The notes: generated by a model from the letters alone, not told the origin. A stretch of 59,031 nucleotides of DNA, filler included, from Sluysia triapertura (GCA_046118255.1; 4 parts of 4 records of this genome joined end to end with filler, not necessarily neighbours in it), one strand, 5' to 3'. Numbered from the whole stretch's first letter, positions 26,801-57,815 are shown. Made by a program: numbers and translations.

Positions 26801-27266
26801 TGCAATAGGGATAGAGAAAAAAGTTCTTGTCTACTTATTGATTACATGTGGTTTTTTATTGATATTATTAATTTGTATCAATATTAAATTTATATTTTTT
26901 ATTAATATTTCAGTGAAATTGATGAAGAGACTAGTATGGCTGCACCGGAAGTAAGTTTCGGTTTTTGCACTAAATTACTTTATTGCACATTTTTTATCAA
27001 TAATAAATATTTTGTGGTGGTGGTGGTAGATAATTTGAAATTAATAAATCAAAAAGTCTTTCTATTTTTAGATATTAACTTTATATTTATATCACCAATG
27101 TTCAAATTATAAACAAATAATATATTTAATCAGATAATGAAAATATGATATGTTTAATTTTTATTCGTCCATTTTAATTGGTTGTGTTTGTCTATAATAA
27201 TAGCATGTCAATAACATGGATTCCGTTAGTGGACCTGCACCAGTACCAGTTGGTGGTATGAAGGCG
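14990..27266 (+). CDS. Classical calpain (calpain-B/CAPN-like), internal portion; exons 14990-15261, 16020-16185, 21055-21230, 24518-24896, 26914-26950, 27204-27266
   Basis: All introns are GT-AG and phase-compatible. GSYEALRGGSTTEALEDFTGG, catalytic His GHAYS, catalytic Asn IRNPWG, DDGEFWMS, AGGCRN, FWTNPQF, C2-like domain YCIVPSTFEPNQEAAFLLRIFSE. The catalytic-Cys exon and penta-EF-hand exons are not in this contig. Confidence 0.93.
15358..15398 (-). mobile_element. Possible piggyBac-like terminus
   Basis: Minus strand reads TAACACGTTGAATGCCATGGGGGTCACCGGTGACC (terminal motif plus subterminal palindrome); no transposase seen. Confidence 0.3.
17572..18070 (+). mobile_element. Internally deleted Tc1-like transposon, copy 1
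   Basis: TA-CAGTGGTGGCCAAATTATTAGAC left TIR; WPRSSPDMNHIENLWEIVKRKV matches the Tc1 catalytic-Glu motif WPxxSPDLNPIENLW. Confidence 0.8.
18457..18520. repeat. Head-to-head (AAT)n/(ATT)n microsatellite palindrome
   Basis: Read directly from the sequence. Confidence 0.85.
18995..19431 (+). mobile_element. Internally deleted Tc1-like transposon, copy 2
   Basis: WPGNSPDMNPVENLWDIVKRRV; right TIR GTCTAATAATTTGGTCACTTCTG-TA. Confidence 0.8.
20424..20780 (-). mobile_element. mariner remnant (3' part and TIR)
   Basis: NARPHVA and HLLRSMSNHLSGFTFENEEAITTWIEEFFDQKSPSFFKSGI; TIR-like TATTGGGTTGGTGCAT at about 20425. Confidence 0.75.
23329..23750 (-). other. Antisense coding-like segment in calpain intron (120+ codons, unknown)
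   Basis: Long open frame with raised GC and protein-like composition; no ATG at the tracked start; no domain recognised. Confidence 0.25.
25073..25224. other. Scaffold gap inside calpain intron, preceded by (TAC/TAT)n microsatellite
   Basis: N run with no linker; calpain exons continue in phase across it. Confidence 0.9.
25410..25740 (+). mobile_element. Highly decayed mariner remnant
   Basis: SYSTIKKWT (HTH region) and SPYSSDLTLNGF (compare HPPYSPDLAPSDF). Confidence 0.5.
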
Positions 27267-30174
27267 GTTAGTAAATCCATCGATAAGTCGTTAAGTTTCT
27301 TGAATTATGTACTTTAAAAAATTAAAAACATGAAAAATATTTTTTCTAAACTGCCAATTAAGTTTCAGTTTTATTTTGATTGGTGGACAATTTTGATTTG
27401 TTGATCATTAATTAAAATTTTTTAATAGATTTTATCGATAAAAGAGGATATTATTAATGTTAATTTTTAAATAATTTAATATATTAATATTATTTAATAT
27501 TTTTATATTACATAGATTGTTAAAATTGACATACAACTAATATATCTTATATGTAGCATATTTAATTCCGAAAGTTTGCCTTTTTAGACCTTATCATAAC
27601 GTCTTTCTTCTGATTATCCATTCAATATTTCGCATTTATCTTCAAAAACAAAACATGTAAACATAAGGTGTTGACAATTCAAAACTTTTATCGGCTGAAC
27701 GCCTTTCAAAAAACGATACCATATCCAAATTTGTATCCAAGGAGAAAGCGTGCACTTAATGTTATAAAAAGAGTAAATGATCACTAACGTAGTCGCGAGA
27801 TATTCGAATTGTTATTGTGGTAATGTTGATAAACAAATATTAAACTTTCACATTCTTTTCGTAAATACGTTTTTCAGCTTTGCTTTATGTAAAAACCGAT
27901 AACTTTATTTATATTTCTTTAATCGTTTACCGTTATTATAAATGTTAACTTTATATTTGTCAATAATTTCAAAGTTTATTTTCTATAAAATCCAATGATT
28001 CTTGATCTAAATTAAGTTCTCTTTATAACTTTAGCTTAAATAAGCTAATTTACTTAATATAAATATAATTTTAAGAGTGTGAGTTCAATATTCGTCTCTA
28101 TTTTTAAAACTGTGATATTATTTTAAAAAAATTTACTTTTCAACTAACTAACTAACTAACTACTATTACTACTAACGTGTGACAACTTACAAAAAATATG
28201 ACGCATATTCTATTTTTAAATGAAAATCAACTCAACCAATCAGAATTTTAATAGTAATTTATCAATAAAAAAATTCCATTTATGTTTTTTATTTGAAAAA
28301 TGTCATTATATTATGTGTGTATGTGTAATATAATGCACTAGAACAATGACATTTACATTAAATAAGCAAAGACACTAACATTTCTAAATGTTATGTATCA
28401 ACAGATATTTTGATATTAATCTTGTTAGGTTGGGTGGCAATAATGTAGTCTGTCAATCGATGACCAAATATGGAATTGTGTTTGGAATTGTGGACACGTC
28501 ACATGTACCTGATAAAGGATGTATGAAAGGGCTTCCTAATAGGGCAGCTGCTATTATTATTATCATAATGATTATTATCATTATTACTATCCATTATTCA
28601 TAGCGATAAATGGAGGACCTATAATAATTAAAATTTTGGATGTGAACACTATACCCTTAATCTTTCAGTTACAAGTGTTCACACTCAAAGCATAGAATCT
28701 TATTGGGCTAAAAACAAAAGAAGATGTAAAACAGTGATGGGTATAAAAAGGAATTGTTTTACAGCATTATTTAAAAGAATTATGTTAGAGAAAAGAGAGT
28801 TTTGAAAAAATTTTAGAATAAATAAGAGATTTTTATTATTGTTTGAAATTATTTATTTTTATTTTTTAAAATTATTTTTGTTTAATTATAAACTTCAATA
28901 TCTATTTCATTGGCTAATAATTGTAAAATCAAAATTTACCTTGTTGCGTCTGAAAAGTATAACTTTATGTAATACAAATAATGAAAATGTTTTTACTCTC
29001 AATATAAACAACAAATATAAATATTGTCATAATATTATTAAGACAAAATATATAAATAAAACGTTATTAAATAATAGTTTTGTTTGGAAATGAAACTATA
29101 TTGGCAGTTTTTTGCTAAATATTTAACATTGCATTTAATTTTTTAAAGTAGAAAATTTTAATATCATTGTTCTTTTTTTATTTTACTGTTGTATCAGATT
29201 TATTTATTTATTCTTTTCTTTTTATAAATTAATGACCAAAATAAAAAATTAATTTTTAGTTTATCAATTATTTACTTATTTTGATAAGTAGCTAAAGTTT
29301 GTAAATATTATGATATATGTTTGGTCAATAATTTTTTGTTGGCTGATTTTACCCAGCTCTTTCATGATACTGTGTTTAATTAGCATTGTTTCCAATTGGC
29401 TTTTACCATGATTTATTTTGATTTGCATGAACAAATTTTAATTAAATTACGCCCTTAATAATAATAATAATAATAATAATAAAATTATTGTTATTTCTGT
29501 AGAGTAATTTTGATTTATTTTCAATTATTTTTGTAAAATACGTTTTTTATTGTAATTTCTTATTTCTCAGCCAATCATAGACACTCTAGAAAATTGTTTT
29601 TTTGAAATACATAATAAGCAAACTTCAGACAGAATACAATATGTCATTAACGAATCACGAAAAAAAACAATTTAATTTCGTAGTTTGAAATATAAAAAAT
29701 ACCAATTTTAACAAATGCTGCGAACTTTTAAAAAATTCATTACAAAATTTGGTTTTCCTCTCAGATTTGTGTATTGTCAATCTGATTTGTTGATCAACTG
29801 TGATTTTGATGTTTCACTTAAATTTGCCAGGAAATAAATTTTAAAAAATTTTCACAATTATTTTGCCTCTGTTTGAGAAGATTGTTAATGAATGATGTGA
29901 AAAAAATTCGCGAAAAATCAACGTTATCGATTTATTTAACAATTTGAATTTTAAAACTATGAAAAAGCATTTGTTTGCCATAATAAATAAATGTATAAGT
30001 TAATATGCAAGGGAAGATAATTATAAGGAAGATATTTTTTACTAAAATATTAATACAATCTCTATTTTAATACATAATTATTATCATTATTATTATAATT
30101 ATCATTATTATTATCATTATAATTATTATCATTATTATTATCATTATAATTATTATCATTATTATTATCATTAT

Positions 30175-30274: not shown

Positions 30275-30769
30275 TATCACAAGTATTTACTTTGATGGTA
30301 GACGAGACACAACTTTGGTCAAAGTAAACAGAAATGGCAAGTGGTATGGTGCCACTCACTACTGTTGAAGATCATTATGTTCTGGTTGAAGAACCAGGTA
30401 GTAGCTATCTGACACATGTGACGCCTTCATGAGGCAAAAGTATTGATATTGTTAAATTCAGCAATGAGCCACTCACTTTGAATTACAAGAACCACACTCA
30501 AGGAGTAGAACGTTGCATAAAACTGGTTATAGATGCCTCAAAAGATGTTTATGTTTTTGAGGCCAGAGATGGCTTTATTTATATTTGGATAAAATATAGA
30601 TTTACGTTAGGTGTGCCTCATTATTTGATAAGTGTGCTGTGGTTGTCAATACCATTAAAGCGAGTATTTTCTAAATTAAAAATGGGGCATTTGTAAGTGT
30701 CCAGAAATAATTTCTTTGTGATTTTCTTTTATTTCACATGCGAACGCAAAGTTTTATTTTCAACCCACC

Positions 30770-30807: not shown

Positions 30808-31599
30808 CGACTAAAATACACTTAGTCAACATTATTTTTCACGTTTTCATAATATACTTACAAACTATACCATGTGATACTTTCTTCACATTAATAACTT
30901 TTGTAAAAATATGGTAATCATTAATCAATCTCCTGTATAATTTACTTTAAGCTTTCATTGACTAAATGTTAGGTAAGTGGAATTTTACAGTATTAGACGT
31001 CCTCGAATAAAGCACGAAAACGCGGTACTCGAGGAACATTGTCTAATTACAGATTATCAATATAATTAAAATATTATAATAAATTAAAATAATTATATAA
31101 CATTATACAAACGATTTAAAATAACTTATTGTATTTTAAAAACGATAAAAGTAAACTTCGATATAGACAAAATTTTTTGGATAATTTCCATTATTATTAT
31201 TATAATTATAATTGTTATAATAATAATTATTACATTTTTAATTCATTAATAAAACAAATTAAAAATTTTTGTAAAATTGCTTACAATTTTTTAATTTAAT
31301 AATCCTTGAAATTAAATTAATCAGTGCAAATTTAATCAAATTTTGAGCAGAAATGAAATAAGTTTAATTAGAATTTTTTTAATCTTTAAATCGCTTTTTC
31401 ATCTGCTAAGGTATTTCATGTTTTAATTAATATTTTGTCGAGACACTGTTTACAAAATGTAAGAACAAATCTTAAGTCGTTCAATCAAAACTAATCATAT
31501 AAAGGAAGATATTGCAAATTTGATTATATTGTGATATTATCACTAATTAAATTGTAATTGTAAATTAGAATAATTATACAAATTCTATGTATAGAAGTA

Positions 31600-32280
31600 A
31601 TAAAATTAATAATAATAATTTACAGAGTAAACGTTTAATAGTAATAAGTAGTAACTAATAATAATACACAGTAATTATTGTTTTTTGTCTGAAATTGTTA
31701 ATACTAATACTAAATACTTTACAAGTAATAACACAATAATAATTGTTTTCTGTCTGAAATTTTTAGTAATATTAATTTATAAGTAATAAATAGTAGTGTA
31801 TAAGTGACACATACTAATCATTGTTTTAATCTAAAATTGTTGATAAATTTTAATTATATACTATTAATATTAAATCTCATTTTAATATGATTTTTGTCGA
31901 TTATAATGCTTCTAAATCTGATATAACATTATTCTCTCAATCTTTAATTTAAGTTAATTTTGATCGAGAATAATGTTATAAATTTTTAATTGTATACTAG
32001 TTTTACTCAATCTCAATTTAATATAATTTTAACTCATATTTTTATGTTCCTAAAATTTAATATTATATTGTCTTTATAAAATCTCATTTTAAAATGATTA
32101 TTTATTTTATTTCATTCAAAAACTAATTGGTATTTGCTATTAAATTTTAAATTTATATTAACTCTATTAAATCTTATTTTAAATTGACATAAAGCATTAT
32201 AATCTTAATGATAATGATTTTAATTTTGCTTTAAAATAATTTTTATTTAAAATAAATTTCAGTTAAATCAAAAATTTAAT
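31600..32280 (-). pseudogene. Decayed beta-repeat orphan gene (units of about 24-30 codons, N-[HY]-x-K-[ML]-R-[FL]-x4-I-x-L-x-[FI])
   Basis: QFKIRFNRVNINLKF / NHFKMRFYKDNIILNF / NYIKLRLSKTSIQLKI / NHIKMRFNINSI*LKF; DNA subrepeat atctcattttaa recurs at roughly 70-90 bp steps. Confidence 0.5.
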
Positions 32281-32285
32281 GAATA

Positions 32286-32732
32286 TTATGTTACAATTTC
32301 CTCCCACGGTAGGTAAGCTTTGTTCCAAAGCTTAAAAGAAAATAAGTGATTATTAGAAGGAAGATTTACATGTCGTACAGGACTTTTCGAGTATGTACTT
32401 AACGATTTATAGAAATTTCTTATTTGTGTCCGTCTTTTGTGTCGACGTTGTGACGGAGTCAATGCAGGTGATAAGTCAGGTGGGAGCCAAATATGTATAT
32501 TGAGACGGTATTTTGGTGTCTGTTAAGATGTAGTAGACGGTGTAGGCGTAAGTTTAAATTCAAAGAGCCTTTAAAAAACAATGTATAACCCAGTATTTCA
32601 GTTCGACAAAGAGCACAAGGTGGAAATCTTGTTAAATAGGCCAACAATACATTTATGATCATATTTATGACTGTATGGAAAACTTTCAACATAATATTCA
32701 TTTAGACTACTTTTACAAATTGGGCAAGTCAT
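32286..32732 (-). pseudogene. Intronless RING-H2 finger gene, decayed
   Basis: MTCPICKSSLNEYYVESFPYSHKYDHKCIVGL /frameshift/ FPPCALCRTEI (third Cys replaced by Tyr), then a Pro/Thr- and Arg-rich tail (LPPDLSPALTPSQRRHKRR) ending LPWEEIVT*. Confidence 0.7.
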
Positions 32733-32959
32733 GAATTATAATTCAAGAAATATTAAGAGCATAACCACCTAATAAAAAATATTAACCTATGTAAATCCTA
32801 TATTCTAACTATTGTCAATCATGTACCGACTACTCAGCTAGGCTGAGATCAGTGGACTTCATGTATCGAGATTGGAACCTATAAAAAACTATAATACAAT
32901 GTCATGCAAGAAAAATGTCATATATACATATAAAAATGTGTATGTAGAAATGTGTTGTG

Positions 32960-33360
32960 TCCATTCTAACCTTAACCTTATTAATTCATCCTTATTATTC
33001 TTTGGATATATAAGTGCTAAGTCTGTAAGAGGGTGAACGACTACATCATTTAATGCTCATAATTGTCCAGTCCAATAACACATGATGTAGGACAATTTCT
33101 AATAACCACGAATATAACTATAATTCTTCGATCCAAGATATCAACTTCATTTGCGATTATTCCAACTACTGATACTTTACGACCCATGCAATCGACTAAC
33201 TCACCAGCAATTGGTCGCGTAACTGTAACGATGCAAAGTGTAGAATTGTATGTGGGGCAGCATTATTGAGAAGTGCATGTACCGGTAATCCATTAATTTT
33301 AACGTTCTGCCATACATAGAGTTTATCGATAATATGGTTTCCTAATGTTAATAACGACAT
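32960..33360 (-). pseudogene. Stand-alone retropepsin-like aspartic protease, decayed
   Basis: Own ATG at 33360. LYVWQNVKINGLPVHALLNNAAPHTI (ALLD[ST]GA motif degenerated), then after a frameshift ELVDCMGRKVSVVG...VIFVVIRNCPTSCVIGLD (ILGxD-type motif). Confidence 0.7.
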
Positions 33361-33364
33361 TGGA

Positions 33365-33845
33365 TTAGATATGATTATATTTTTCCTTTGTCTTACATAG
33401 ACTTTTTTTGGGTTTCGACCAGCGAAAAATTGAAATAATAATAGAAATTACAGCCCAGCTGAATTCTATTATTATTGTTGCAATTAGGAGTTTTATCAAT
33501 TGAATTGAATAGGTGAATGTTGATTTCTTTTCTGTATGTGGTTCATGATTCTTTTAATAGTTTTGAGGGTAAACATAATATTTTGAACAGTTAGTTGATC
33601 GTGTTTATAGACTGGCATTAAATTTGTCATGTGTATATCGCATTTGCGTTTTGGTCGGAGTTTTTGAAATTAACAAGCATTCTTGAATTAGATATATTGT
33701 AGGTCGTGAAATTAAAGTATTCTTGGGAAATATACATTTTCAATGACAAATCAGTATGCTGTTTTATATAAAGTGATATTTCATGTGTTGGTAGTGAAAA
33801 TGTCAAGTCTGGTATCCAATTATTAGTGCCAATAATACAAATGTC
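33365..33845 (-). pseudogene. Type I membrane glycoprotein-like gene 2, decayed
   Basis: Signal-like FVLLALIIG; sequons NFT and NIS; TM LIKLLIATIIIEFSWAVISIIISIF; basic RWSKPKK; ends YNHI* 4 nt before the protease ATG. Needs two frameshifts. Confidence 0.55.
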
Positions 33846-34334
33846 TGTAAAGGGTTACTTGAATAAGGTGGAGGCGTTGTTTCTTCGTAAGGAGGCTGTC
33901 TTTGTCTTCTTGAGCAGCAATTTTTCCAATCTAATAATGACAGTGATATTAATAGAAATGGAACCATTAATATTCATGTGAATTGTGGTTCTTGTAATAC
34001 TATTGATGTAATAGTTGTATTCGTAATCTGATCGTAATATTGTAACATCCATGTACAAGAATCTTTTATTACGTTACAGTGGCAGATATTAGTTCCATGA
34101 TCTGAACAGTTCATTTGTTTTTATTCAAACGAACTACATTTGTTATGACCATACGGGTTTTCGTCACATGGTGGTTTTCAAGAAAGTATTGTGCTTGGTA
34201 CATATTTTCCAAGATAAGCTAGTAACATAGTCACTTCTAAGAAATTTTACAAGGGGTTCATTATGTTCCTTGGTTTTACATGCATCTAATGTAATAATCA
34301 AGTTACTCCAGATTAGGTTAAGAAATAGAAACAT
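33846..34334 (-). pseudogene. Type I membrane glycoprotein-like gene 1 with PPxY tail, decayed
   Basis: Signal-like MFLFLNLIWSNLIITLDAC; Cys-rich ectodomain (PPCDENPYGHNKC...NCSDHGTNICHCNVIKDSC); TM ILMVPFLLISLSLL; tail WKNCCSRRQRQPPYEETTPPPYSS. Confidence 0.6.
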
Positions 34335-34379
34335 TACAATATTTGTCAATATGAAATTAAATTTTATTAAATTAAATCT

Positions 34380-34640
34380 CTTTATTAAATCTCACTTTAA
34401 AATCATTAGTTTGATTCAAATTTGATTGTTATTTGTTGCTAAATTCTGAATTTATATTAACTGTATGTAATCTCATTTTAAATTGTAATATTTTGAGCAT
34501 TATTATTTTAACGTTATTTTAATATGAATAATAATTATTTTAACATTATATTTTATTAAATCATTAAAAATGAGTATTTTAAAATGAACATTATTTATTT
34601 ATGAAATGTTAATAATAAAAATGAATATTATGTTTAAAAT
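34380..34640 (-). pseudogene. Partial beta-repeat orphan copy
   Basis: QFKMRLHTVNINSEFSNK*QSNLNQTNDFKVRFNKEI; direct-orientation homolog of 32070-32290. Confidence 0.5.
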
Positions 34641-36239
34641 TCTTTAACCAAATATTACAAAACAGAATATCATTACAAATATTACAATGTCATGGATTGC
34701 TTTTGACTTTTTTTGAATTGTATCTGCTTTATAAGTTGTTAGATGGATGTGCAAAACATTTTCACTTAAATTATTCCATTACGCCCACGCTCCACGGTTT
34801 AAGCTTAATGTGACATTTATGTAGGTTTTCTCTTTATAAATTGATTTCGTCAATGTGAGTGTCTGTATTCACTCTTAATTGCTTTACTTTAATGTAACAA
34901 TGATTTGTCTTACACTTAATCGATTTCGAAAATATTTTATTATTGAACTAACTAACTTTATTCACTATTTAAGTTCTAATTCCTTGGACTGCTATTCTCT
35001 AAGAGCTGTATATTTAACTAAATTCTCTTATTATCCTTTTTCTACTTATAAAAAGTTAGATTCTCTTAATCAGTATATGCACTATCAATTTAATTTAATA
35101 TTAATCAATTAGATAAACTAATTTCAATTTCTTTTATTTTTCTAAATACTATCAATAATCTATCCATAAAATAATTTCTCTGCACTAAATTCTTTTAATT
35201 ACTAGTTTATAATCAATAACAAATATGTAACAAATGAAGGCCTGTTATTAATATTTCAACAACTCTTACTAATACTTTACAAAGTAACAATATGCAATAA
35301 TCCAACAATAAGATAATATAATATACAAAGTTATTTCTAGAAAAATATTTTCGAATTTTGAATAATATTTTTTATTTAACGTAAAAGTGTCGTGATTTTA
35401 CGTAAAAGTTAATTATTTTCGTAATAAAAAACAAGACTTAATAACAATTAATTTACTTATAGCTTTTACAAAAAATATGTAATCCAAGAATTTAATTAAT
35501 ATCTGTCGATGAAGTGATCCGTAATTTGTACGAATTGTTATGATAATCAAGACAACAGATTTTTTCAGTTAATCAGTTAAATAGCCATGTATAGCAAGTT
35601 ATAGATCAACAGTAAGTGGTATACTTGTGTTCGGATGTTTTATAATCAATTGATATTCCAAAATTTTGTAAATTCGATGGATTATACTCTTCGTTACTTC
35701 GAGCAATGAGATTTAAAAATAATTCATAATTATTGATGAAAAGTTATACGTCTCATATAATTTTTTCATCGTCAATATTCGTGAGTGTACTAATAATTAA
35801 ATTATTTTCTAAAACTATTTCAAATCCTTTAATCAGTGGATTTCAACAACAGGTTATTAACTTTATTCTAATTCAGATAATTATTATCTTTAGATAAAAT
35901 TCAATTTATTTTCTGATAAGGTTAGATTTATTATTATTATTATTTTATTAATTTATAGATTCAACCTACTGTTGAGATACCAACCTTACAGATATATTTT
36001 TAACAAAATTTATATTATTATATGATAGAAAATAGTTTATTATTATTTTGAAATATTGTACATAATATTTTGTCTTTTTGTTTTATACTATTTCATGTCT
36101 ACTATTTATACTATTTGTACTATTTTAAAATTAAATGCAATTATTATTTATCTGTATGTAATTAATAATAATAATAATAATAATATAATAATGCTCATTT
36201 GGCTTTAAATTAAAATTTCAAATTCTTGCTTTTAATTTC

Positions 36240-36990
36240 ATTTTCAAAATAAATTCAATATCATTATTACTGTAATAATAATGCTTTTGTATTAATTAAA
36301 AATTAAATTACATAGATTTAGTATAAAATCAAAATTTGATAACACAAAACAATCAATTTTAAATTGAAATTATATAAATAATCATTTAAAAGTGAGATCC
36401 AATCGAGAATATGAAATTAAAAATTATAAACATCAAACCTTACTATTGTAGTCAATAAATAAGACGTAATAATATGAAATCAAATTTAAGATCATAAAAT
36501 CCGATCAAAATTATATTAAAAACATGATTCAGAATATTATAATACATAAAATCATATTAGTATCATATTAATTTATGTACACAAAAATTAATAATATTAT
36601 GTTAGATCAAAATAAAATTTTAAATTAAAATAAAGATTTGGAAGAACAAAAAAATGTGTAGTTGTGCAAAACATTATATTACAAATTAATATTGTATAAT
36701 TTAATAGTATGGTTGTATATAAATGCTAATGACTAAAATAGTAATTACTATATCATAAATTAACTATTATTAAGCAAAATAGTTAGTCAAAAATTATAAA
36801 TTAAATTATTATTATTACAAAAAGACTATTAAATTAATTATTCAGACGAAAATCAACTACTATGATTACAAACTAACTATTACATTATTAATTGTATATA
36901 TTATTACTTATATTCAGACAAAAATTAACTATTATTGTATATATTACAAATAAAAACATTAATTAATGTTGCATATATTATAATTTAATA
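36240..36990 (+). pseudogene. Decayed beta-repeat orphan copy (inverted relative to 31600-32280)
   Basis: KIKLHRFSIKSKFDNTKQSILN*NYINNHLKVRSNRE aligns without gaps to KIRFNRVNINLKFNSKYQLVFE*NKINNHFKMRFYKD. Confidence 0.55.
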
Positions 36991-37429
36991 CTAACAAAAT
37001 TTTACAGGACAATATAAATTTTAGTGTCATTTGATAAACAACAAAAAAGTGGTTTTATAAAATTTAGTTTAAGTTTTAAAAGGAGTTGATTAAATGAATA
37101 TTACAGAAGTTGATATATTGTTGATAATTGAATATTTCATTTGAACACCGCGATAATTTTATCTTTATTTGAACACAGTATTTTAAAGTAGTAAGTGACT
37201 TTTACTGAATATAAAAATTAATAAAATAAATTTTCGATTAAATTTTCAATAAAAATTAAAATTACATATTATTATTTTCTTATAGTTAAAATGGTTGTAA
37301 ACTATTATTTAATTTTCTGTATTTTTCTAAGGGATTGAAAATAGAGTTGTTGCAAAAAATTAGAATTAGATATATATTATAAAGTTAAGTTGAAATTGAA
37401 AATGAAAATATTTTAAAGGTCTTATGAAG

Positions 37430-39240: not shown

Positions 39241-40229
39241 CTTATATAGTCAAATTATTATGACCTTGAGTTCACAATTAAAACAACCTATAATTAAAAC
39301 AATCGCAATAAAAACTAAAATATTTTAAAATAAATATTTTTCTAATTTACAATTATTAAAATGATTAAAATATATTAAGTATTTTTACATTTATTAAAAT
39401 ATTTAAAATAAATATTTTTACAATTTACAATTATCAGAATGATTAAAATATAATAATATATTAATTTTATGAATAAATTAAAAAATTACCTTTAAATCAA
39501 TTGATATTTACCATAATATCCAATAATCAAAAATTTATAAATAGATTTATAATATACAAAATTTACACATGAATTAATCAATAATTTGTAGATATCTATT
39601 ACGCACAAGATTTAGTATGTAAATTTATATAGATTTATAACATTACAATATTAATATTTAATTTTTTAATTAGTGATTTTTAATGTAATTAAAATTTTAA
39701 TTAGTGGTGTATGTAATTTATATACAATATATAGTTATAGATACACCTACAGAAGGTTATAAGCCATACATTACAACCGTACCCACATTTAAACATCTTT
39801 ACAATTAAAAAAAAGAAAATTTCTAGTAGTGTTGTTGGTATTGTCAAACTGTATATCAGGAGATGAATGGGAAACACAGAACTTTAATAATAATAATTAT
39901 TATTATTATTTTAATGTGAGAAGTAATTTAAGTAAAAGTAGATTGAATAGAGCAAATGAAAATAATAGATAATAGTAAATCAATTTTTGTTTTTGTATCT
40001 AATAAAGTTTGACAGTAATTTTATAAATAGATTATTGTCCGATTAAATCTCAAAGAATGTTGCAGTGATTTGTGTGAAAAAATGTTTGGCAACGATTGGA
40101 TGATGAGACAATATAAAAAGGAATTTTACCTCACAATAATAACACAACAGTAACAACAATTAATAATGAAAATGAGAATATCCATGCTTTAAGTAATTTT
40201 TAAATTTATTTTTATGATTAAAAATATTA

Positions 40230-40620
40230 TTTTGGGAGATTATAGTAAAATAGTTTTTGTTTTTTGTGTTGCGTTAGGAAATTTATATTTGATAAGCCTG
40301 AATAATAGTTAATATTTTTCTCAGTGTTGTGTCATTTCTGGTTTCCTTGGACAGATTATTGTGGTCTTAATATTGTCATAAATATTATTGTTAATTTTGA
40401 AATTTAGTAAATTTTATTTTATCACTTCTATTAGTGTTAAAGGAGAAACTTATAATAACGACTTATATTTGATTTTGTAATTATTATATTATTGAGTTAT
40501 TATTAATTTGAATTAAGAACGTAATTTTTGGGTTGAATAAATATCATTAGGAAATATGTGAAAATTTATACTTTATCTAGTGAATATCCAAATTATTTAA
40601 GTAAATTAAATTGATATTAG
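40230..40620 (-). pseudogene. Decayed orphan family IIHPK/KPEVTQ, copy 3
   Basis: LNNLDIH*IKYKFS...FNPKIT...KPEMTQH. Confidence 0.55.
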
Positions 40621-40999: not shown

Positions 41000-43900
41000 T
41001 TCGAAGAAGTGTTGTATTGAGAGAAATATGGTAATCTGATGTAGTAATAAGTTGACTATGAATAAGACTTGATAGAGTATCACAATTAAATTCTGTTAGT
41101 AAATATTAATAACTCTGGAGGACTTTATTAATATGTCAAAATTTTTCTGTTGATCAATTCCGTTCGAAGTCCTAACATTTTCTGGCAACATAATGTAGTC
41201 ATTTACATTTCACCAAATATATAATCAGCTAATTTACCTGTACAAAGTCAAAACTTTCTGCAAATCCCATTAACATTTAATCATTTTTCAATTTTCGTAA
41301 CAGTTCGATCCAAAAAAGTTCAATACTCAGTCTTGATAATAAAAAAAGTTACAAATGAGACTCTTGGTTTCTCTTTCAAATTACATTGGAACTAAAATAC
41401 TAAAACATTTTAGTATTTTCTAAGTAGTTTTAAATGATTTTCAAGTATCATGGCTATTTCTCTGCTTGAAAATCTTGCATTTGACCCAACAATGTGCTTA
41501 TGATGTTGTTTCTTAAATTTGATCTATTCATTTTTATATCTGTACAAAAATTTTCTGTAAAGACTAACAAATTGATAGTTTAATAGTCAGAATGACAAGA
41601 CGGTTAAAAGTGTTTAACATTGGAATATATCAGAGTGGCAAAACTGCGTATATTTTAACTGATGGAGTGAAACTTTGTAAATGAAATATAAGACATAATA
41701 GTGAAATATAATGGAATATAATAAAACAGAGATCTACTTGTGATCCTTATCATTAAAGGGATCCAGTAATTACGGTAACAACAGCACTACTTTGGTTGTT
41801 GGATATATAAGATTAATTGTTTTATAAATTTAAAATTAGTTTCTAGATTAATATTTATAGAGATTTGGTTAAAACTATCTCTATAGAAAGCCAAATAAAT
41901 TAAATTTAATTAAAATAATTTACAAATAAAAAATAGGATAAGAAAACACAAATTTATTATGATTACATATGAATACAATGTTTACTATAACTGTAGGTAA
42001 ATCTCATAAAATTCATCACACTTCATCACAGAAAGACATCACTGACTTACACAGATCATTAAACAAACTACTAAACTCATTCAAAAAACAAGCATAATCA
42101 TTGCACATAATTATCATGAATTACAGCTATTATTATTACAATTCAAATCGTATTAAACAATATGTATAATAATTATTGTCATTATTGTTATATAATATGA
42201 GTAGCAAATAATAATCTTTATAATAACTTTTATAATAAATTTCATATTAACATCAACAATACCATCATTAATAAAAATAATAACTACGTTATTGTCATCA
42301 TTATTATTTCTTTTATCCTTATTATCAATCTTTCTTTTTATTCTTTTGTTTTTCCTCAATACTACACACAATATATTGATCTCAATCCAGAACAATTACT
42401 CTATCAATCAGCTGAATTCTAATTGGGTCTAACTTGGTTCTATTTGGGTACCGATTAGTCCTTTGAAAACAATGAAATATAATCAATAATGTGCTTCATT
42501 TTATTGTACAGTATTATTGGATAATTCAGAAATTGTTCGTGCAACAGGTCTAGCTAGTCTAGACAAGCTATTCGAGTAGTTGCTTTATTATTGGTAGATA
42601 AATCCATCGGTATTCAACCAATTGTGGTACTTAAAAAACAATTTAGATCTGAGTATGAACAGTAACATCAAGTAACAATTATACAAAAAATATTTTTCTT
42701 GATAGTCTTGTGTGGAATAAAAAATCTCTTTACCAACCAATTAATTTTCAGACGTTGATTATGCAACTAAAAAAACAGTATTTCGGTATAAACTTCGAGC
42801 CATTAGCATCAATTAAAAAACATCCTGAAATTATGAAATATATAAAAATTAAAAATTATATTAATTATCGATTTATCTAAAGTTAAAATACGCATTATGA
42901 AAATGCTGTTAAGCGTAGATTAAATCGCAATGAAAACGTAGCAAATTCTGAACAAGGTACAAAGTTAATAAAGTGTAATTCTAAATTGAAATTTATTCCA
43001 CGTTTTATGTGGAATTTTTCTTGGTCTTTATCAGATAAATCGAAAGTTTTTGTTCGTACTATAATGACAATAATTATGTTAGCTAGAATTATATGGCTTC
43101 TTCATTTAGGACCGATAGTTTCAATTATATTAGTATTGTTAATTCAAATAAAGGTTTTCCACAAAGTCATCAAAATCGGTTATAATATTTACCGTTACAA
43201 TGGTTGGAAATTATTTCGTTCTTTGTCTTATTTTTTTGTTAACATCAAATTATTTCTTGTTCGGAGAAAGTTTCATTGTCATTTTCGAATTTTATTGGCT
43301 AAAGAAGATTTACTACAGTATTTTGTTACTCATCATGGTTTAATTTCGTTTAGTTTTTTAATTGGTTTCGTGATCTTAGTTTTGATATTGACTAAAAACA
43401 TTATTTTAAGCAATTTGTATTGTTTGGATGGACTTATTTGTTGCTATTGATAATTGTTACGAGCAGTCATTTCTTAATAAACAATATTTTTCTGACATTA
43501 TTGGTTTCTACTACCGATTCTGTTGATATGTTTCAATGATATCATGGTTTACATTTTTGGAAACGCCATTTAAAAATAGTTGTTTCAGTATGTACTGATG
43601 TTTCTCAGTTACGCACTTTAGCGGTTCAAGGTCATTCTTGATTTTCTTTAAAAATTCGAATGGTTTTAGTGGACCAAGGTCACGCATTTAATTTTTATAT
43701 TCAGCGAATTTTGTTTTATTCTTGATTGATTGGTTGTGAAATCGATCAGTTCACAAATATTCTTCTTATTGCCATTATTGCAGGCTTGAGCATAAGTGAG
43801 ACTTTGCTTCACCATATTCGAACCTGCAGGCCAGTTGTTCTTATTATTATCTTTTGGAATTTTAAGTGGGCCCTGACTAGTTTTTCGAGGGGTTACATTA

Positions 43901-45129: not shown

Positions 45130-45525
45130 TACTTTCAGTCATTTTTTTAAAGAAAAGGTAATTTAGTGGGAGACCCTCTGCCCAATTTATTTTTAAAAAA
45201 TATATATACATACTATTTTAAACTTTCCGAATATTCATATTTTTCAGTGTTTGTTGCGTCACTCTTGGTTTTTTCATTTAGATTGTAATATTCTTAATAT
45301 TATAAACTCTATTGTAAATTTTGTCATTTTAGCTATTTTTGGTTTTGTTGGTTGGAAAGAAAAATTCTAATTTGATTTTGGATAATAGTAAATTATTGCC
45401 TTACTTTTGATTTGATTCTTAAGAGCTTAATTTTGGGTGATAATTATTAATATTAAGTAAGAAGATTACACCAAAATTATATTTGATAAATTAACGACTT
45501 AAATTATTAAGATTATTTTAAGCTA
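45130..45525 (-). pseudogene. Decayed orphan family IIHPK/KPEVTQ, copy 4
   Basis: NNLNNLSR*FIKYNF...YHPKLS...MKKPRVTQQTLKKY in one frame. Confidence 0.55.
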
Positions 45526-46722: not shown

Positions 46723-49700
46723 ATGAATGAAGATGAAGAAAAAGGATTTCCAGTAAGATTTTATATGATTAATCAACTTTTTAGTTTGTCATATTTTTTA
46801 AATCAATTTATGAAGTAGAACCCTTAAATCATTTCAATCTTGTCACACAAAATACTCATCGATGGAAAATACGTGTTGAAACGTTAAAAAGTGTTAGTGC
46901 AATTAAACGTGTGAAATTTCAATTACATGAAACATTTGAAAAGCCCGTGCAAAGTTAGACTTATATTGGTTTTTATATTTGTATTGTAGTATTGACAGCA
47001 CCACCTTTTGAAATTGAAGAAGAAGGTTTTGGTGAATTTCAAATGAATATGGAAATTAAAGTAGTAAATCGTCGAATACCATTACCATATATGATTTTAC
47101 TTTCAACTCAAAAAGTTACAAATATTCAGTATCATCATTCATTATGGGAAAATGTCAAACCTAAAGAATATGGAATAGTATTAGATATCGGAGGTGTTCG
47201 TTTAAATATTTAATTTTTTAAATAAGTTTAAATATTTGTAAATAATAATGACAAACGTTATTCAGATACCGTTGAAGCATAATCTTAGTGTAGATTCTAT
47301 AAGTAGGAAATGCGAATATTTGTTAAATTTGGTTAAAAAATCCGAATCTGGTTTGTCTCCTGATCTACTTTATCCTAAGGTTTTTGAAAAAATTGTTAGT
47401 GAACTTTTATGAATATATAAAAAGAAAATTAAGTTTATTAATTTTTGAATTTTTATAATAAATTTTATAAGTCAATAAGTGTGTTTATAATTTGTATTAA
47501 TTAAACTAAGTTAATAATTTAAATTGCACTACAACATACTCTTTGAATAAACACTACTCCGAATGAATTTTACAAATACTGAGTAAAATAAATGATTAAA
47601 ACTCAATAGCAAAACTTAGGTTAAGATTTTCCCTAAGCCATATTCTTTCCTTTTAATTTTAATATTTTCTGAAATTTCTTAGATGATAATAATAATAATA
47701 ATAAGAAGAAGAAGAAGAAGCATATTAATTGATTGTTTTAAAGGTTATAAGCAAAATTATAGATAGATTAATTTATTTCAATCAAGTACTTTTAAAATAT
47801 GTTGTAAGTGCTCATCAAGCGATAAAAATAATAATTTTAAGATTAAGTGATCAAATTATAAGAATATTTGGTAGGTTAAATAATAAAATTAATATTTTAT
47901 TAATAATTATTATTAATAACAGTTGTAAATATATAATTGAAAATAATATTGTATGAAACAAGTAAAATTAATATTTATACATTTGAAACGCAATAAAACA
48001 TGATAAAATGAAATCCGTATGGGAAATATTTTATTTTTTTAAGAAAGCAGTTATGAATAATGTTAAACAAGAAAGTATTGCATCAATACCAGCGACAGAT
48101 AGACCATCACTTTCATCTGTCAATGCTAACATTGCTTCAGTTATTCACCAACCTGTTGAATCTTTTTCGGCAAAAAAGAATCATGCCAAGAAGCATCATA
48201 TTTCAGCATCTCAAACACGCCACGATGATCAACTGTCTGATTTATCCGATTTTCATGACAATGGTTCCGGTATTTCATCGGGTTCCAAAAGTAAGAAAAG
48301 AAAAAACGATATTCATGAAACACTGAAAAAAGAAATAAAATCAGAATCTGTTGTAACACCTATCAAACAAGAAAAAGTTAGTTAGAAATTATTATTTAGA
48401 AGTGTGTTTGAATTAAAGTTTAACAAATTGTACATAATTTGAGGAAATACCGAATGGGGAATAATATTAAAATAATAAGTTTAATCCACATTGGACAATG
48501 TGTAACATCTATCTCAATTGAAATGACACAATGAAACTTATACATGAAGTATAGATATAAGAGTCAATAAATTATCAACACAGGTCGAATGTATAACTTG
48601 TATAAGTTGTAATTTATTAAATTGTTTTAAATATAAATTACTACCTAAGGACTTAAGGTCCGTCATAAAAAATTCATTGGAAATAAAATTATTGCAAAAG
48701 GACTTAGGGCTCAGTATAAACTTTGAATGAATTCTTTTATGATCTATTGCATTAAAAAGACATAAAATTGAACGAGAGTAGATAGATACTAAATTGGTGT
48801 AACCAGTATAGAAATAAACCTTTACCAAATACCCATCCGAGCAACTGATGAGTATAATATTATACAAACATTTAACCGCATTAAAATAGTTATCAAAACA
48901 ATGTGAAGTTGTCTTTATATATCGACATAACTTCTTGCTTGGCCAGATACCATTCCAATTCGAATACTAAACTGTCTAGCTTCATAAGAACATGTGACAA
49001 ATTCAGTCACTGGACCATGTTCATTAACTTTTACTGAAGGACTGCAATGTACGATAGATTTACCTTTTAATTCCAGAAATTTTTTGAAACCTGCACAAAT
49101 TTTATTCATTGAATGAAAATTTTAACAAACGTTTGGTCTGAATAATCCCTTTCTCCGCACAATCTTCCTATTCACCAGTTTCAAAGCTGGCTACAATCCA
49201 ATTTGAAGTAATTTTTGGTAAGAAATTAGCAACTATGTGAGTGACATGATAATGATAAAACATAGCGACATTCCTTTGCTTCTTTTTTTCGATAATATAA
49301 ATCCATAAATCAATTCATAAAAATTGATATGTAATAAATTTTTTACATGTTATTAGAATTGTTAAATTTTTTGTCTTGTCTTCTCTATTTAAGCTGAATA
49401 TTACTTTATATTATAAAAATTTTTACTCTATATTAACAGTTCAAATCTCCGCAAAGTTTATATTTATATCGAACTTTAATTTATTATACCACTTTAAACT
49501 TAATTGGAGGTATGAGTCTATATACTCGTCCTCGTTCTTCAGGATAGAAGTGTTTAATAATAATTTTATTAGACGGATTATATACTAATTCAGAGCTACC
49601 TATCACTTAAAATTAATTTTAATGCAATTCTCTATGTTCCTTATTTACTTTTTTAGGGTCTCACTCCCAAACGTAAATCGAATTTAATCAATTATTTATT

Positions 49701-56829: not shown

Positions 56830-57815
56830 AAAGGAGTTGCAGAAAGTTATTTCACACTTAAGCCGCATAATCATTATTTTGACAGCTGATATAGTAAGGC
56901 TTGTGGTGCTAAAAATTTTGTTTGATTCTTTGTAATAGTTTTGTTTGGTGCATTATCAAAGATGAAAAATCGAAAGTAGCATTTTCGGCATATTTTACTT
57001 TTTTACTATCGAAAAGGTGAAAGTACAGTTCAAACAAGGCGAAAGTTATGTGATATGTATGAAGAAGATGTATTGACCGAACGACAATGCCAAAATTGGT
57101 TTGCAGTATTTCGATGTTGAAGATGCACCATATTCTGGAAGACCCGTTGAAGCCGATTAAGACAAAATAAAGGCATTGATAGATGCAAACTGCCGAAAAA
57201 CAACTCGTGAGATTAGTGAGAGGTTAAATTTGTCGAATTCGACTGTTCATGATCACGTGAAGCTTTTCTTCGTCACATTAACGACTATGATTATTGGCAA
57301 CGAGAAATGAGATCATGGGGTAAAAAGATGAACCAGCTCACATCAATTCGAAGGCCGATACCTGTTTGGCGGGATTTCAAGGAGATCGTATTTTTGAGCT
57401 TCTACCGGACAATTCTGAAGTATACTGTAATCAACTTGACGAATTGAATGATTCACTTAAACCGAAAAGGCCAGAATTGATCAATAGAAAAGGTATATTG
57501 TTCCATCACGATAATACGAGACCTCGAACAAGTTTGTTAATTCGTCAAAAGTCTTTAATAGGAAGTACCACTATATCCACCACATTCTCCAGATTTGGCA
57601 TTTTCGGACTATAATTTGCTCCGGTCTGTAAAATTTTTTGGATGGGAAGATCTTCACTTCAGATATCACTTGGACGAGTTTTTGCATGCAAAGATGATCG
57701 GAATCAATATCCTGTCCGAAAGGTGGAAAAGTATTGGACCAAAATGGAGAATATATAATTTAATATAATGTTTATAAACGTTCATTTTCACCGAAAAAGC
57801 GAAAGTACGAAATTT
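56830..57815 (+). mobile_element. Decayed near-full-length mariner transposon
   Basis: From ATG 56962: HFRHILLFYYRKG...RKLCDMYEEDVLTERQCQNWFA; later SGRPVE, YCNQLDELNDSLKPKRPELINRKGILFHHDNTRP and a PPHSPDLAFSDY-type motif. Confidence 0.88.

Follow-up and report, generated by a model that had tools for sequence, protein, structure and literature searches.

What would bring two small membrane proteins, a free-standing protease and a RING protein together, head to tail and without introns? The question is raised by a stretch of Sluysia triapertura DNA (GCA_046118255.1; 59,031 nucleotides including filler, 4 parts of 4 records joined, hereafter the window), in which a preliminary description had seen such a cassette between positions 31600 and 34640, bracketed by beta-repeat genes, and had taken it for the fossil of an endogenous virus or virus-like mobile element of open class. 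We think it probable that the cassette is the 3' accessory-gene block of an abundant long terminal repeat (LTR) retroelement, and that gag-pol was lost from the window copy by internal deletion. On this reading it would be an LTR-type element with an unusual block of four genes at its 3' end.

The span 32286-34334 is, on the minus strand, a decayed coding block with four real, co-oriented, intronless genes. Read along that strand, they are:

33848..34334, minus strand: GP1, a predicted type I membrane protein (sequence and hydropathy; one frameshift, two in-frame stops)
33365..33853, minus strand: GP2, a predicted type I membrane glycoprotein (hydropathy and sequons; about three frameshifts)
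32889..33360, minus strand: a retropepsin-like protease with its own ATG at 33360 (Atlas features, weak PDB matches; two frameshifts)
32286..32732, minus strand: a protein with an N-terminal RING and a Pro/Ser/Thr-rich and basic tail (Pfam zf-RING_2, PDB; two frameshifts, one stop)

Stop-free runs of at least 40 codons cover 90% of the block. The figure for 500 local shuffles is 45 ± 12%, with a maximum of 83%, and five control stretches read on both strands give 21-54%. Each gene has about 150-165 codons and is readable in pieces; the four together contain about eight frameshifts and three in-frame stops, and there are no poly(A) scars between them. At least five frames had been proposed; four were found and a fifth was not confirmed. 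Their shared minus-strand orientation, lack of introns and breakage by stops and frameshifts stand as described, and so does the packing of the first three: the GP1 frame enters the hydrophobic stretch that likely starts GP2, and the GP2 stop (33365-33367) lies 4 nucleotides ahead of the protease ATG. The tight packing does not extend to the RING gene, which starts about 157 nucleotides past the end of the protease frame.

Evidence of selection comes from GP2. Compared with an abundant copy over 33588-33714, 16 of 23 differences lie on third codon positions (p=0.0004), and the excess appears in both window frames flanking a one-base indel (6 of 7 and 10 of 16); the 23 differences were drawn from 40 of 585 rows, picked by support and not by position. 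GP2 was therefore under purifying selection, that is, a selected gene.

The two membrane proteins are small. GP1 starts at ATG 34334 with a hydrophobic N-terminus that is a predicted signal peptide, followed by eight cysteines in the ectodomain, a membrane segment, a Cys-Cys pair and a PPxY tail; it has two sequons, its hydropathy peaks at 1.85, and an in-frame stop falls inside the membrane segment. It holds one canonical PPxY, a motif that occurs seven times in the 118,058 residues of the six-frame translation. GP2 likewise has two sequons, together with a strong membrane segment (hydropathy peak 2.5) and a basic tail ending in a YxxI motif. The reading as two membrane glycoproteins keeps these peaks and sequons but gains no profile support, as neither protein (about 160 codons) matches a Pfam family. 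Single-sequence fold predictions of pieces of GP1 and GP2 gave a predicted local distance difference test score of 50 and were not used. The predicted ectodomains, about 120 residues each, are too small for a canonical fusion protein, and neither reaches the several hundred residues of an errantivirus-type env (F-type or gB-type fusogen).

The N-terminal half of the protease has Atlas features at 0.91-0.94 to aspartyl-protease clusters, with all ten of its best family-bearing matches in one family or clan, and each of its eight weak PDB matches (E 0.38-1.5) is a retropepsin. The C-terminal half found no PDB match, neither half matched Pfam when searched separately, and the catalytic motif is not intact in the window copy in the PDB alignment; the gene is read as a probable stand-alone retropepsin from its N-terminal half. 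Read with an X at its break, the RING gene matches Pfam zf-RING_2 along profile positions 2-44 of 44 with E=0.0014, which does not reach the curated cut-off, and ten of ten PDB matches are RING domains, with RNF126 the best (E=0.0028) and an equine herpesvirus RING (1chc) at E=0.035. Six of the eight zinc ligands are in place. Because positions 3 and 5 are not intact in the window copy, the RING assignment holds but its earlier specification as RING-H2, a subtype with His at positions 4 and 5, cannot be fixed. At the ligand-3 codon nearly all other copies are unlike the window (24 contigs, 6,378 of 6,411 summed depth), a sign that the window copy has decayed.

Why, then, an LTR element? The flanks of the block, and two further places in the window, carry copies of one repeat unit:

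31553..32295 (end 31553 or 31559), minus strand: 3' terminal repeat, likely an LTR, about 740 nucleotides, TGTAA...TTACA (alignments, contig depth)
32296..32307, minus strand: G-rich purine tract, likely a polypurine tract, directly before the TGTAA of the 3' repeat
34380..34637, minus strand: 5' terminal repeat, first ~260 nucleotides of the unit only (alignment with the 3' copy)
about 34345-34379: a short inverted piece of the repeat unit after the 5' repeat (read by eye from the alignment)
36157..36948, plus strand: a solo repeat copy in opposite orientation, TGTAA...TTACA (end-to-end alignment with the 3' copy)
999..1507, minus strand: a partial further repeat copy, ending TTACA at 999 (alignment with the solo copy)

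The 5' copy begins at 34637 and aligns in register from base 1 of the 3' copy, with identity at 170 of 215 columns (about 79-80%) and a local score of 182 against 91 ± 9 in 200 shuffles (maximum 116). It is nearer to the 3' copy than to the solo copy (76%), the solo and 3' copies being 71% alike. The solo copy, 1.5 kilobases from the element, matches the 3' copy at 508 of 711 columns (score 325; 100 shuffles 162 ± 15, maximum 209), and the partial copy matches the solo copy at 369 of 486 (score 223; shuffles 133 ± 11). TTACA ends are seen in three copies and TGTAA starts in two. In the 3' copy the first 500 nucleotides have a guanine-plus-cytosine (GC) content of 15%; the unit contains internal units of about 90 nucleotides and partial palindromes. 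These are the regions where beta-repeat genes had been placed, and they turn out to be non-coding terminal repeats, with 15% GC and no codon bias: mismatches between copies fall 13, 14 and 12 by codon position over 143 ungapped nucleotides (p=0.93), and three other blocks give p=0.33-0.61.

Of the 310 TGTAA sites that the two strands of the window contain, just one is preceded by a G-rich purine tract, by a criterion fixed only after the site was seen. The 3' genes of LTR elements usually end at the junction of purine tract and LTR, and the RING gene, the last of the four, ends at this junction, with its stop codon just inside the 3' repeat. The purine tract, the TG...CA repeat and the solo copy together point to the repeat unit as the LTR of an LTR retroelement, not a feature of a DNA virus. 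A split-repeat layout, for which PAT and Ngaro elements served as reference, was rejected, no extra repeat block lying ahead of the 3' copy. We assign the element to no named LTR family: the TG...CA repeat, the purine tract and many copies, solo copies among them, are present, and the window copy lacks a primer-binding site, a target-site duplication and gag-pol.

Is this one locus or a family? Two sequencing runs contain the stretch: X1, which may be the source sample, and X2; no RNA run containing it was listed. Contigs were aligned on 31300-37000 at 80% likeness, and the results concern the contigs listed. In X1, 8,436 contigs match, with 584, 1,766, 3,557 and 2,529 in percent-identity classes running from 99+ to under 90. 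Summed depth, which is not copy number, ranges from 355 to 28,000 across the genes and reaches 12,000-60,000 where the repeat copies peak; within 31491-34737 it spans 355-60,000, and at 34738-36074 it is 12-70. Window-identical, single-copy contigs have depths of 11-24. One X1 contig over part of GP2 has a depth of 3,613, or 151-328 times the single-copy depth, and all four genes are multi-copy at similar depth (3,600-6,400) at their best-supported sites. The ratio of abundant to single-copy depth, about 150-330 in X1 and about 48 in X2 (a Poisson estimate, host DNA being sparse in X2), does not discriminate between an episome and an integrated element. An X2 contig of 694 nucleotides, with the same differences as the abundant copy, covers GP2 and rejoins the window in GP1, so these two genes are neighbours in another copy as well. 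The block thus belongs to a large, diverse and abundant mobile family. That family appears to have young, abundant members, and naturally intact copies are therefore likely to exist.

Within the X1 profile, interior depth peaks of 15,000-28,000 were seen at 33401-33591 and 32828-33018, one site reaching 87,000; they equal the terminal repeat in height. They may be conserved stretches common to many subfamilies, or a shorter, very abundant derivative.

Several observations weigh against an LTR element with its gag-pol deleted. The 5' repeat covers only the first ~260 of ~740 nucleotides, and in a repeat that is 85% adenine plus thymine (AT) the 5-nucleotide inverted ends are weak alone. The second halves of the 3' and solo copies, aligned by themselves, score 87 against a shuffle maximum of 85, which is marginal, and the alignment of the partial copy's 3' end does not beat shuffles. 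No TGG follows the 5' copy or the other three repeat copies as a primer-binding site would, although such a loss is expected if the 3' part of the 5' LTR was deleted. No target-site duplication of 4-6 nucleotides flanks the element (two candidate ends) or the solo copy; with copies 20-29% diverged, it may have decayed. The preliminary description had seen no reverse transcriptase, RNase H, integrase or gag nearby, and neither these nor a capsid matched Pfam among the 155 of 213 complexity-filtered open reading frame (ORF) pieces of the window that were scanned. Both the late choice of the purine-tract criterion and the distance between summed depth and copy number belong on this side as well. 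Among the contigs listed, none spans the four genes together in another copy, and in both runs loose ends at 33404-33408 show that in some copies the likeness to the window breaks off shortly ahead of the GP2-protease junction. In one single-copy contig, repeat sequence adjoins the DNA immediately upstream of GP1, so the gag-pol-less layout may not be private to the window copy. Finally, literature searches found no precedent for an LTR element with an additional or relocated retropepsin towards its 3' end.

If the LTR reading is right, an internal deletion from within the 5' LTR to just before GP1 would have removed the primer-binding site and gag-pol together. Full-length relatives would be copied by reverse transcription, with the plus strand primed at the purine tract, and the 3' block might be expressed from a subgenomic RNA, with re-initiation or leaky scanning over the GP1-GP2-protease junctions. 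GP1 could act as a membrane adaptor whose PPxY tail binds NEDD4-type ligases, for budding or for removal of host surface proteins, and GP2 as a small surface glycoprotein sorted via its YxxI tail. As a separate protein, the protease would work as a homodimer, with element or host proteins as its targets. Herpesvirus ICP0 is a RING-type E3 ligase with an anti-host role, and the RING protein might, by analogy, be an E3 ligase directed against host defence or silencing factors. These envelope, budding and ubiquitin roles, like all functions of the four proteins, we infer from sequence.

Could the amplified unit do without gag-pol altogether? A helper-dependent, satellite-like LTR element, in which selection maintains only genes for membrane, protease and ubiquitin functions and which relies on another element's reverse transcriptase and integrase for its copying, seems to us rather unlikely, though it has points in its favour. 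Non-autonomous LTR derivatives are described in passages of PMC6431247, and an env-keeping one, TelKA2n, in the main text of PMC5408684. No gag-pol adjoins the block, purifying selection is seen in GP2, and the single-copy contig joining repeat sequence to just upstream of GP1 may be a second instance of such a layout. Against it, the window copy has no complete 5' LTR or primer-binding site and so is not the mobile form itself, and two contigs diverge from the window upstream of 34310.

A fragment of an integrated or episomal DNA virus or of a Polinton-like element, in line with the virus proposal of the preliminary description, with a repeat that would be origin-like or an unrelated miniature transposon, we regard as improbable. 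It can draw on the tight packing, the small orphan glycoproteins and the N-terminal RING with a herpesvirus RING among its PDB matches, on the ~90-nucleotide units and partial palindromes of the repeat, and on a very uniform high-depth contig that could be an episome. Yet the purine tract and TG...CA ends fall exactly at the end of the last gene, and retropepsin is the enzyme of LTR elements and retroviruses. No relative appeared in four viral-contig scans, in which only close relatives are detectable, and the thousands of divergent contigs suggest that the family has long been resident in the genome. Neither a packaging ATPase nor a protein-primed polymerase, which count with capsid and integrase as hallmarks of Polintons/Mavericks and other integrated DNA viruses, was found among the 155 ORF pieces of the window. 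What survives of the original idea is a mobile element that is multi-copy, under purifying selection in GP2 and distinct from an ordinary gag-pol region; its class is less open, the signs favouring an LTR retroelement over a DNA virus.

That the four frames are retrocopied or captured pieces of host genes, brought by chance between two copies of a common repeat, is very improbable: animals do have small RING proteins, Ddi1-type retropepsins and PPxY membrane adaptors, and an apparent decayed retrocopy lies elsewhere in the window (42887-43540, E=0.12), but all four parts are multi-copy at similar depth, GP1 and GP2 are adjacent in another copy, no similarity to conserved animal proteins was found among 1.84 billion representatives, and poly(A) scars are absent between the genes.

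Homolog searches, all with broken gene pieces as queries, were blank. In a 5.8-billion-protein set no relative was found for GP1 (68-219 residues), the RING gene (81-259 residues) or the N-terminal half of the protease (96-2000 residues), and Atlas gave no usable match for a GP2 piece. One 581-residue frame searched by phmmer against the 1.84 billion representatives had no match at E<=0.001; the four viral-contig scans and two metagenome scans showed no relative of the four genes, and tblastn against phages gave just five chance-level matches at E=9. The best PHROGs match (E=0.0037), on the GP2 membrane segment, was not taken as homology. These blanks say little about novelty, because the queries were broken pieces and because a host protein of the window, which we take to be UBA5-like (gene 6337-7554), is itself absent from the 15-billion-protein collection. 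No paper with this four-gene combination was found in a literature search that lacked most subscription papers and Repbase entries.

What would such an element mean? The usual description of an invertebrate LTR element is gag-pol plus, at most, a single env-like gene. A 3' block of four genes that include a stand-alone retropepsin, a RING ligase and a membrane protein with a PPxY motif would, if true, be an accessory set like those of complex vertebrate retroviruses and large DNA viruses. It would also offer a system for asking how a retroelement that lacks a canonical fusogen passes from cell to cell and counteracts silencing by its host. Only tentatively, and with some doubt, do we suggest that these are complex, retrovirus-like elements forming an invertebrate lineage, equipped with a pair of small glycoproteins on the envelope side, a protease separate from pol and a ubiquitin ligase resembling ICP0, of which hundreds of near-identical copies are still active, or else a satellite retroelement that provides a helper with only these membrane and anti-host functions.

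The rest of the window is AT-rich animal genome DNA (15-35% GC per kilobase), with spliced calpain exons, YEATS-domain exons and a mariner-type transposase fragment (14955-24906, 46785-47210, 57324-57611). Near the partial LTR copy, about 430 nucleotides away, an intact orphan ORF of 189 codons (3-569, plus strand) has no Pfam or PDB match and is single in the window. A possible decayed frame at 35400-35780 (minus strand), in the low-depth DNA between the cassette and the solo LTR, has no Pfam match; homology between the two was rejected, tblastn finding no match. A second dispersed repeat family, 68-73% alike, occupies 1519-2258, 13792-14095, 39885-40597 and 45212-45508, one member adjoining the partial LTR copy. 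An identical 305-nucleotide duplicate (5064-5368 and 6245-6549) includes the start of the single-ORF ThiF/UBA5-like gene and is either a recent duplication or an assembly artefact. The decayed intronless cytidylyltransferase-like sequence at 42887-43540 (plus strand; Pfam CTP_transf_1, E=0.12) is likely a processed pseudogene, and pieces at 28388-28802 and 30302-30693 resemble DNA-transposase remnants, presumably Merlin-like and hAT-like by their motifs, with no Pfam match.

How does the element compare with known systems? The herpesvirus ICP0-type RING (PDB 1chc) is alike in its place near the N-terminus, ahead of a Pro/Ser-rich basic region, but the match is weak (E=0.035 against 0.0028 for the cellular RNF126) and there is no sign of herpesvirus descent. 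Animal errantiviruses, the env-carrying Ty3/gypsy elements whose env, in the account of PMC13524379, is an F-type or herpes gB-type fusogen, are invertebrate LTR elements whose 3' end likewise codes for membrane glycoproteins. Their env is much larger than GP1 and GP2, which match no Pfam family, and the portions of PMC13524379 consulted describe no RING or extra protease for errantiviruses ('RING' and 'accessory' each occurring 0 times). The Retand elements of plants have long regions between pol and the 3' LTR with antisense ORFs, mostly TRP28, as presented in parts of PMC11963269. They resemble the window element in carrying several kilobases of extra coding sequence there and in having non-autonomous members, and differ in their plant lineage and in the antisense direction of the extra ORFs, the genes of the window element being in sense.

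A further comparison is with LTR retrotransposons of bdelloid rotifers. By the main text of PMC5408684, Vesta4 and Vesta6c encode small transmembrane ORF3 proteins of 210-230 residues, and TelKA2n is non-autonomous, keeping env and lacking most of pol. Small orphan, cysteine-bearing membrane proteins that take the place of env, after pol and before the 3' LTR, and a family that holds on to its 3' gene with most of pol gone, are thus features in common, compared by description only. The bdelloid elements have one ORF3 there, the window element four genes including a retropepsin and a RING, a term with 0 occurrences in that main text. Burro, a giant planarian Ty3/gypsy element with thousands of copies, offers a comparable set of domains: env-like, ubiquitin-related and RING-like (AIR1), with accessory ORFs, according to the sections of PMC6431247 that treat it. 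It too is an abundant invertebrate LTR element, and its env lies before the protease. Burro encodes a single polyprotein of about 4,900 residues, with reverse transcriptase, RNase H and integrase after the protease, between LTRs of several kilobases; the window element, set beside that description, has separate small genes that lead directly into a purine tract and a 740-nucleotide repeat.

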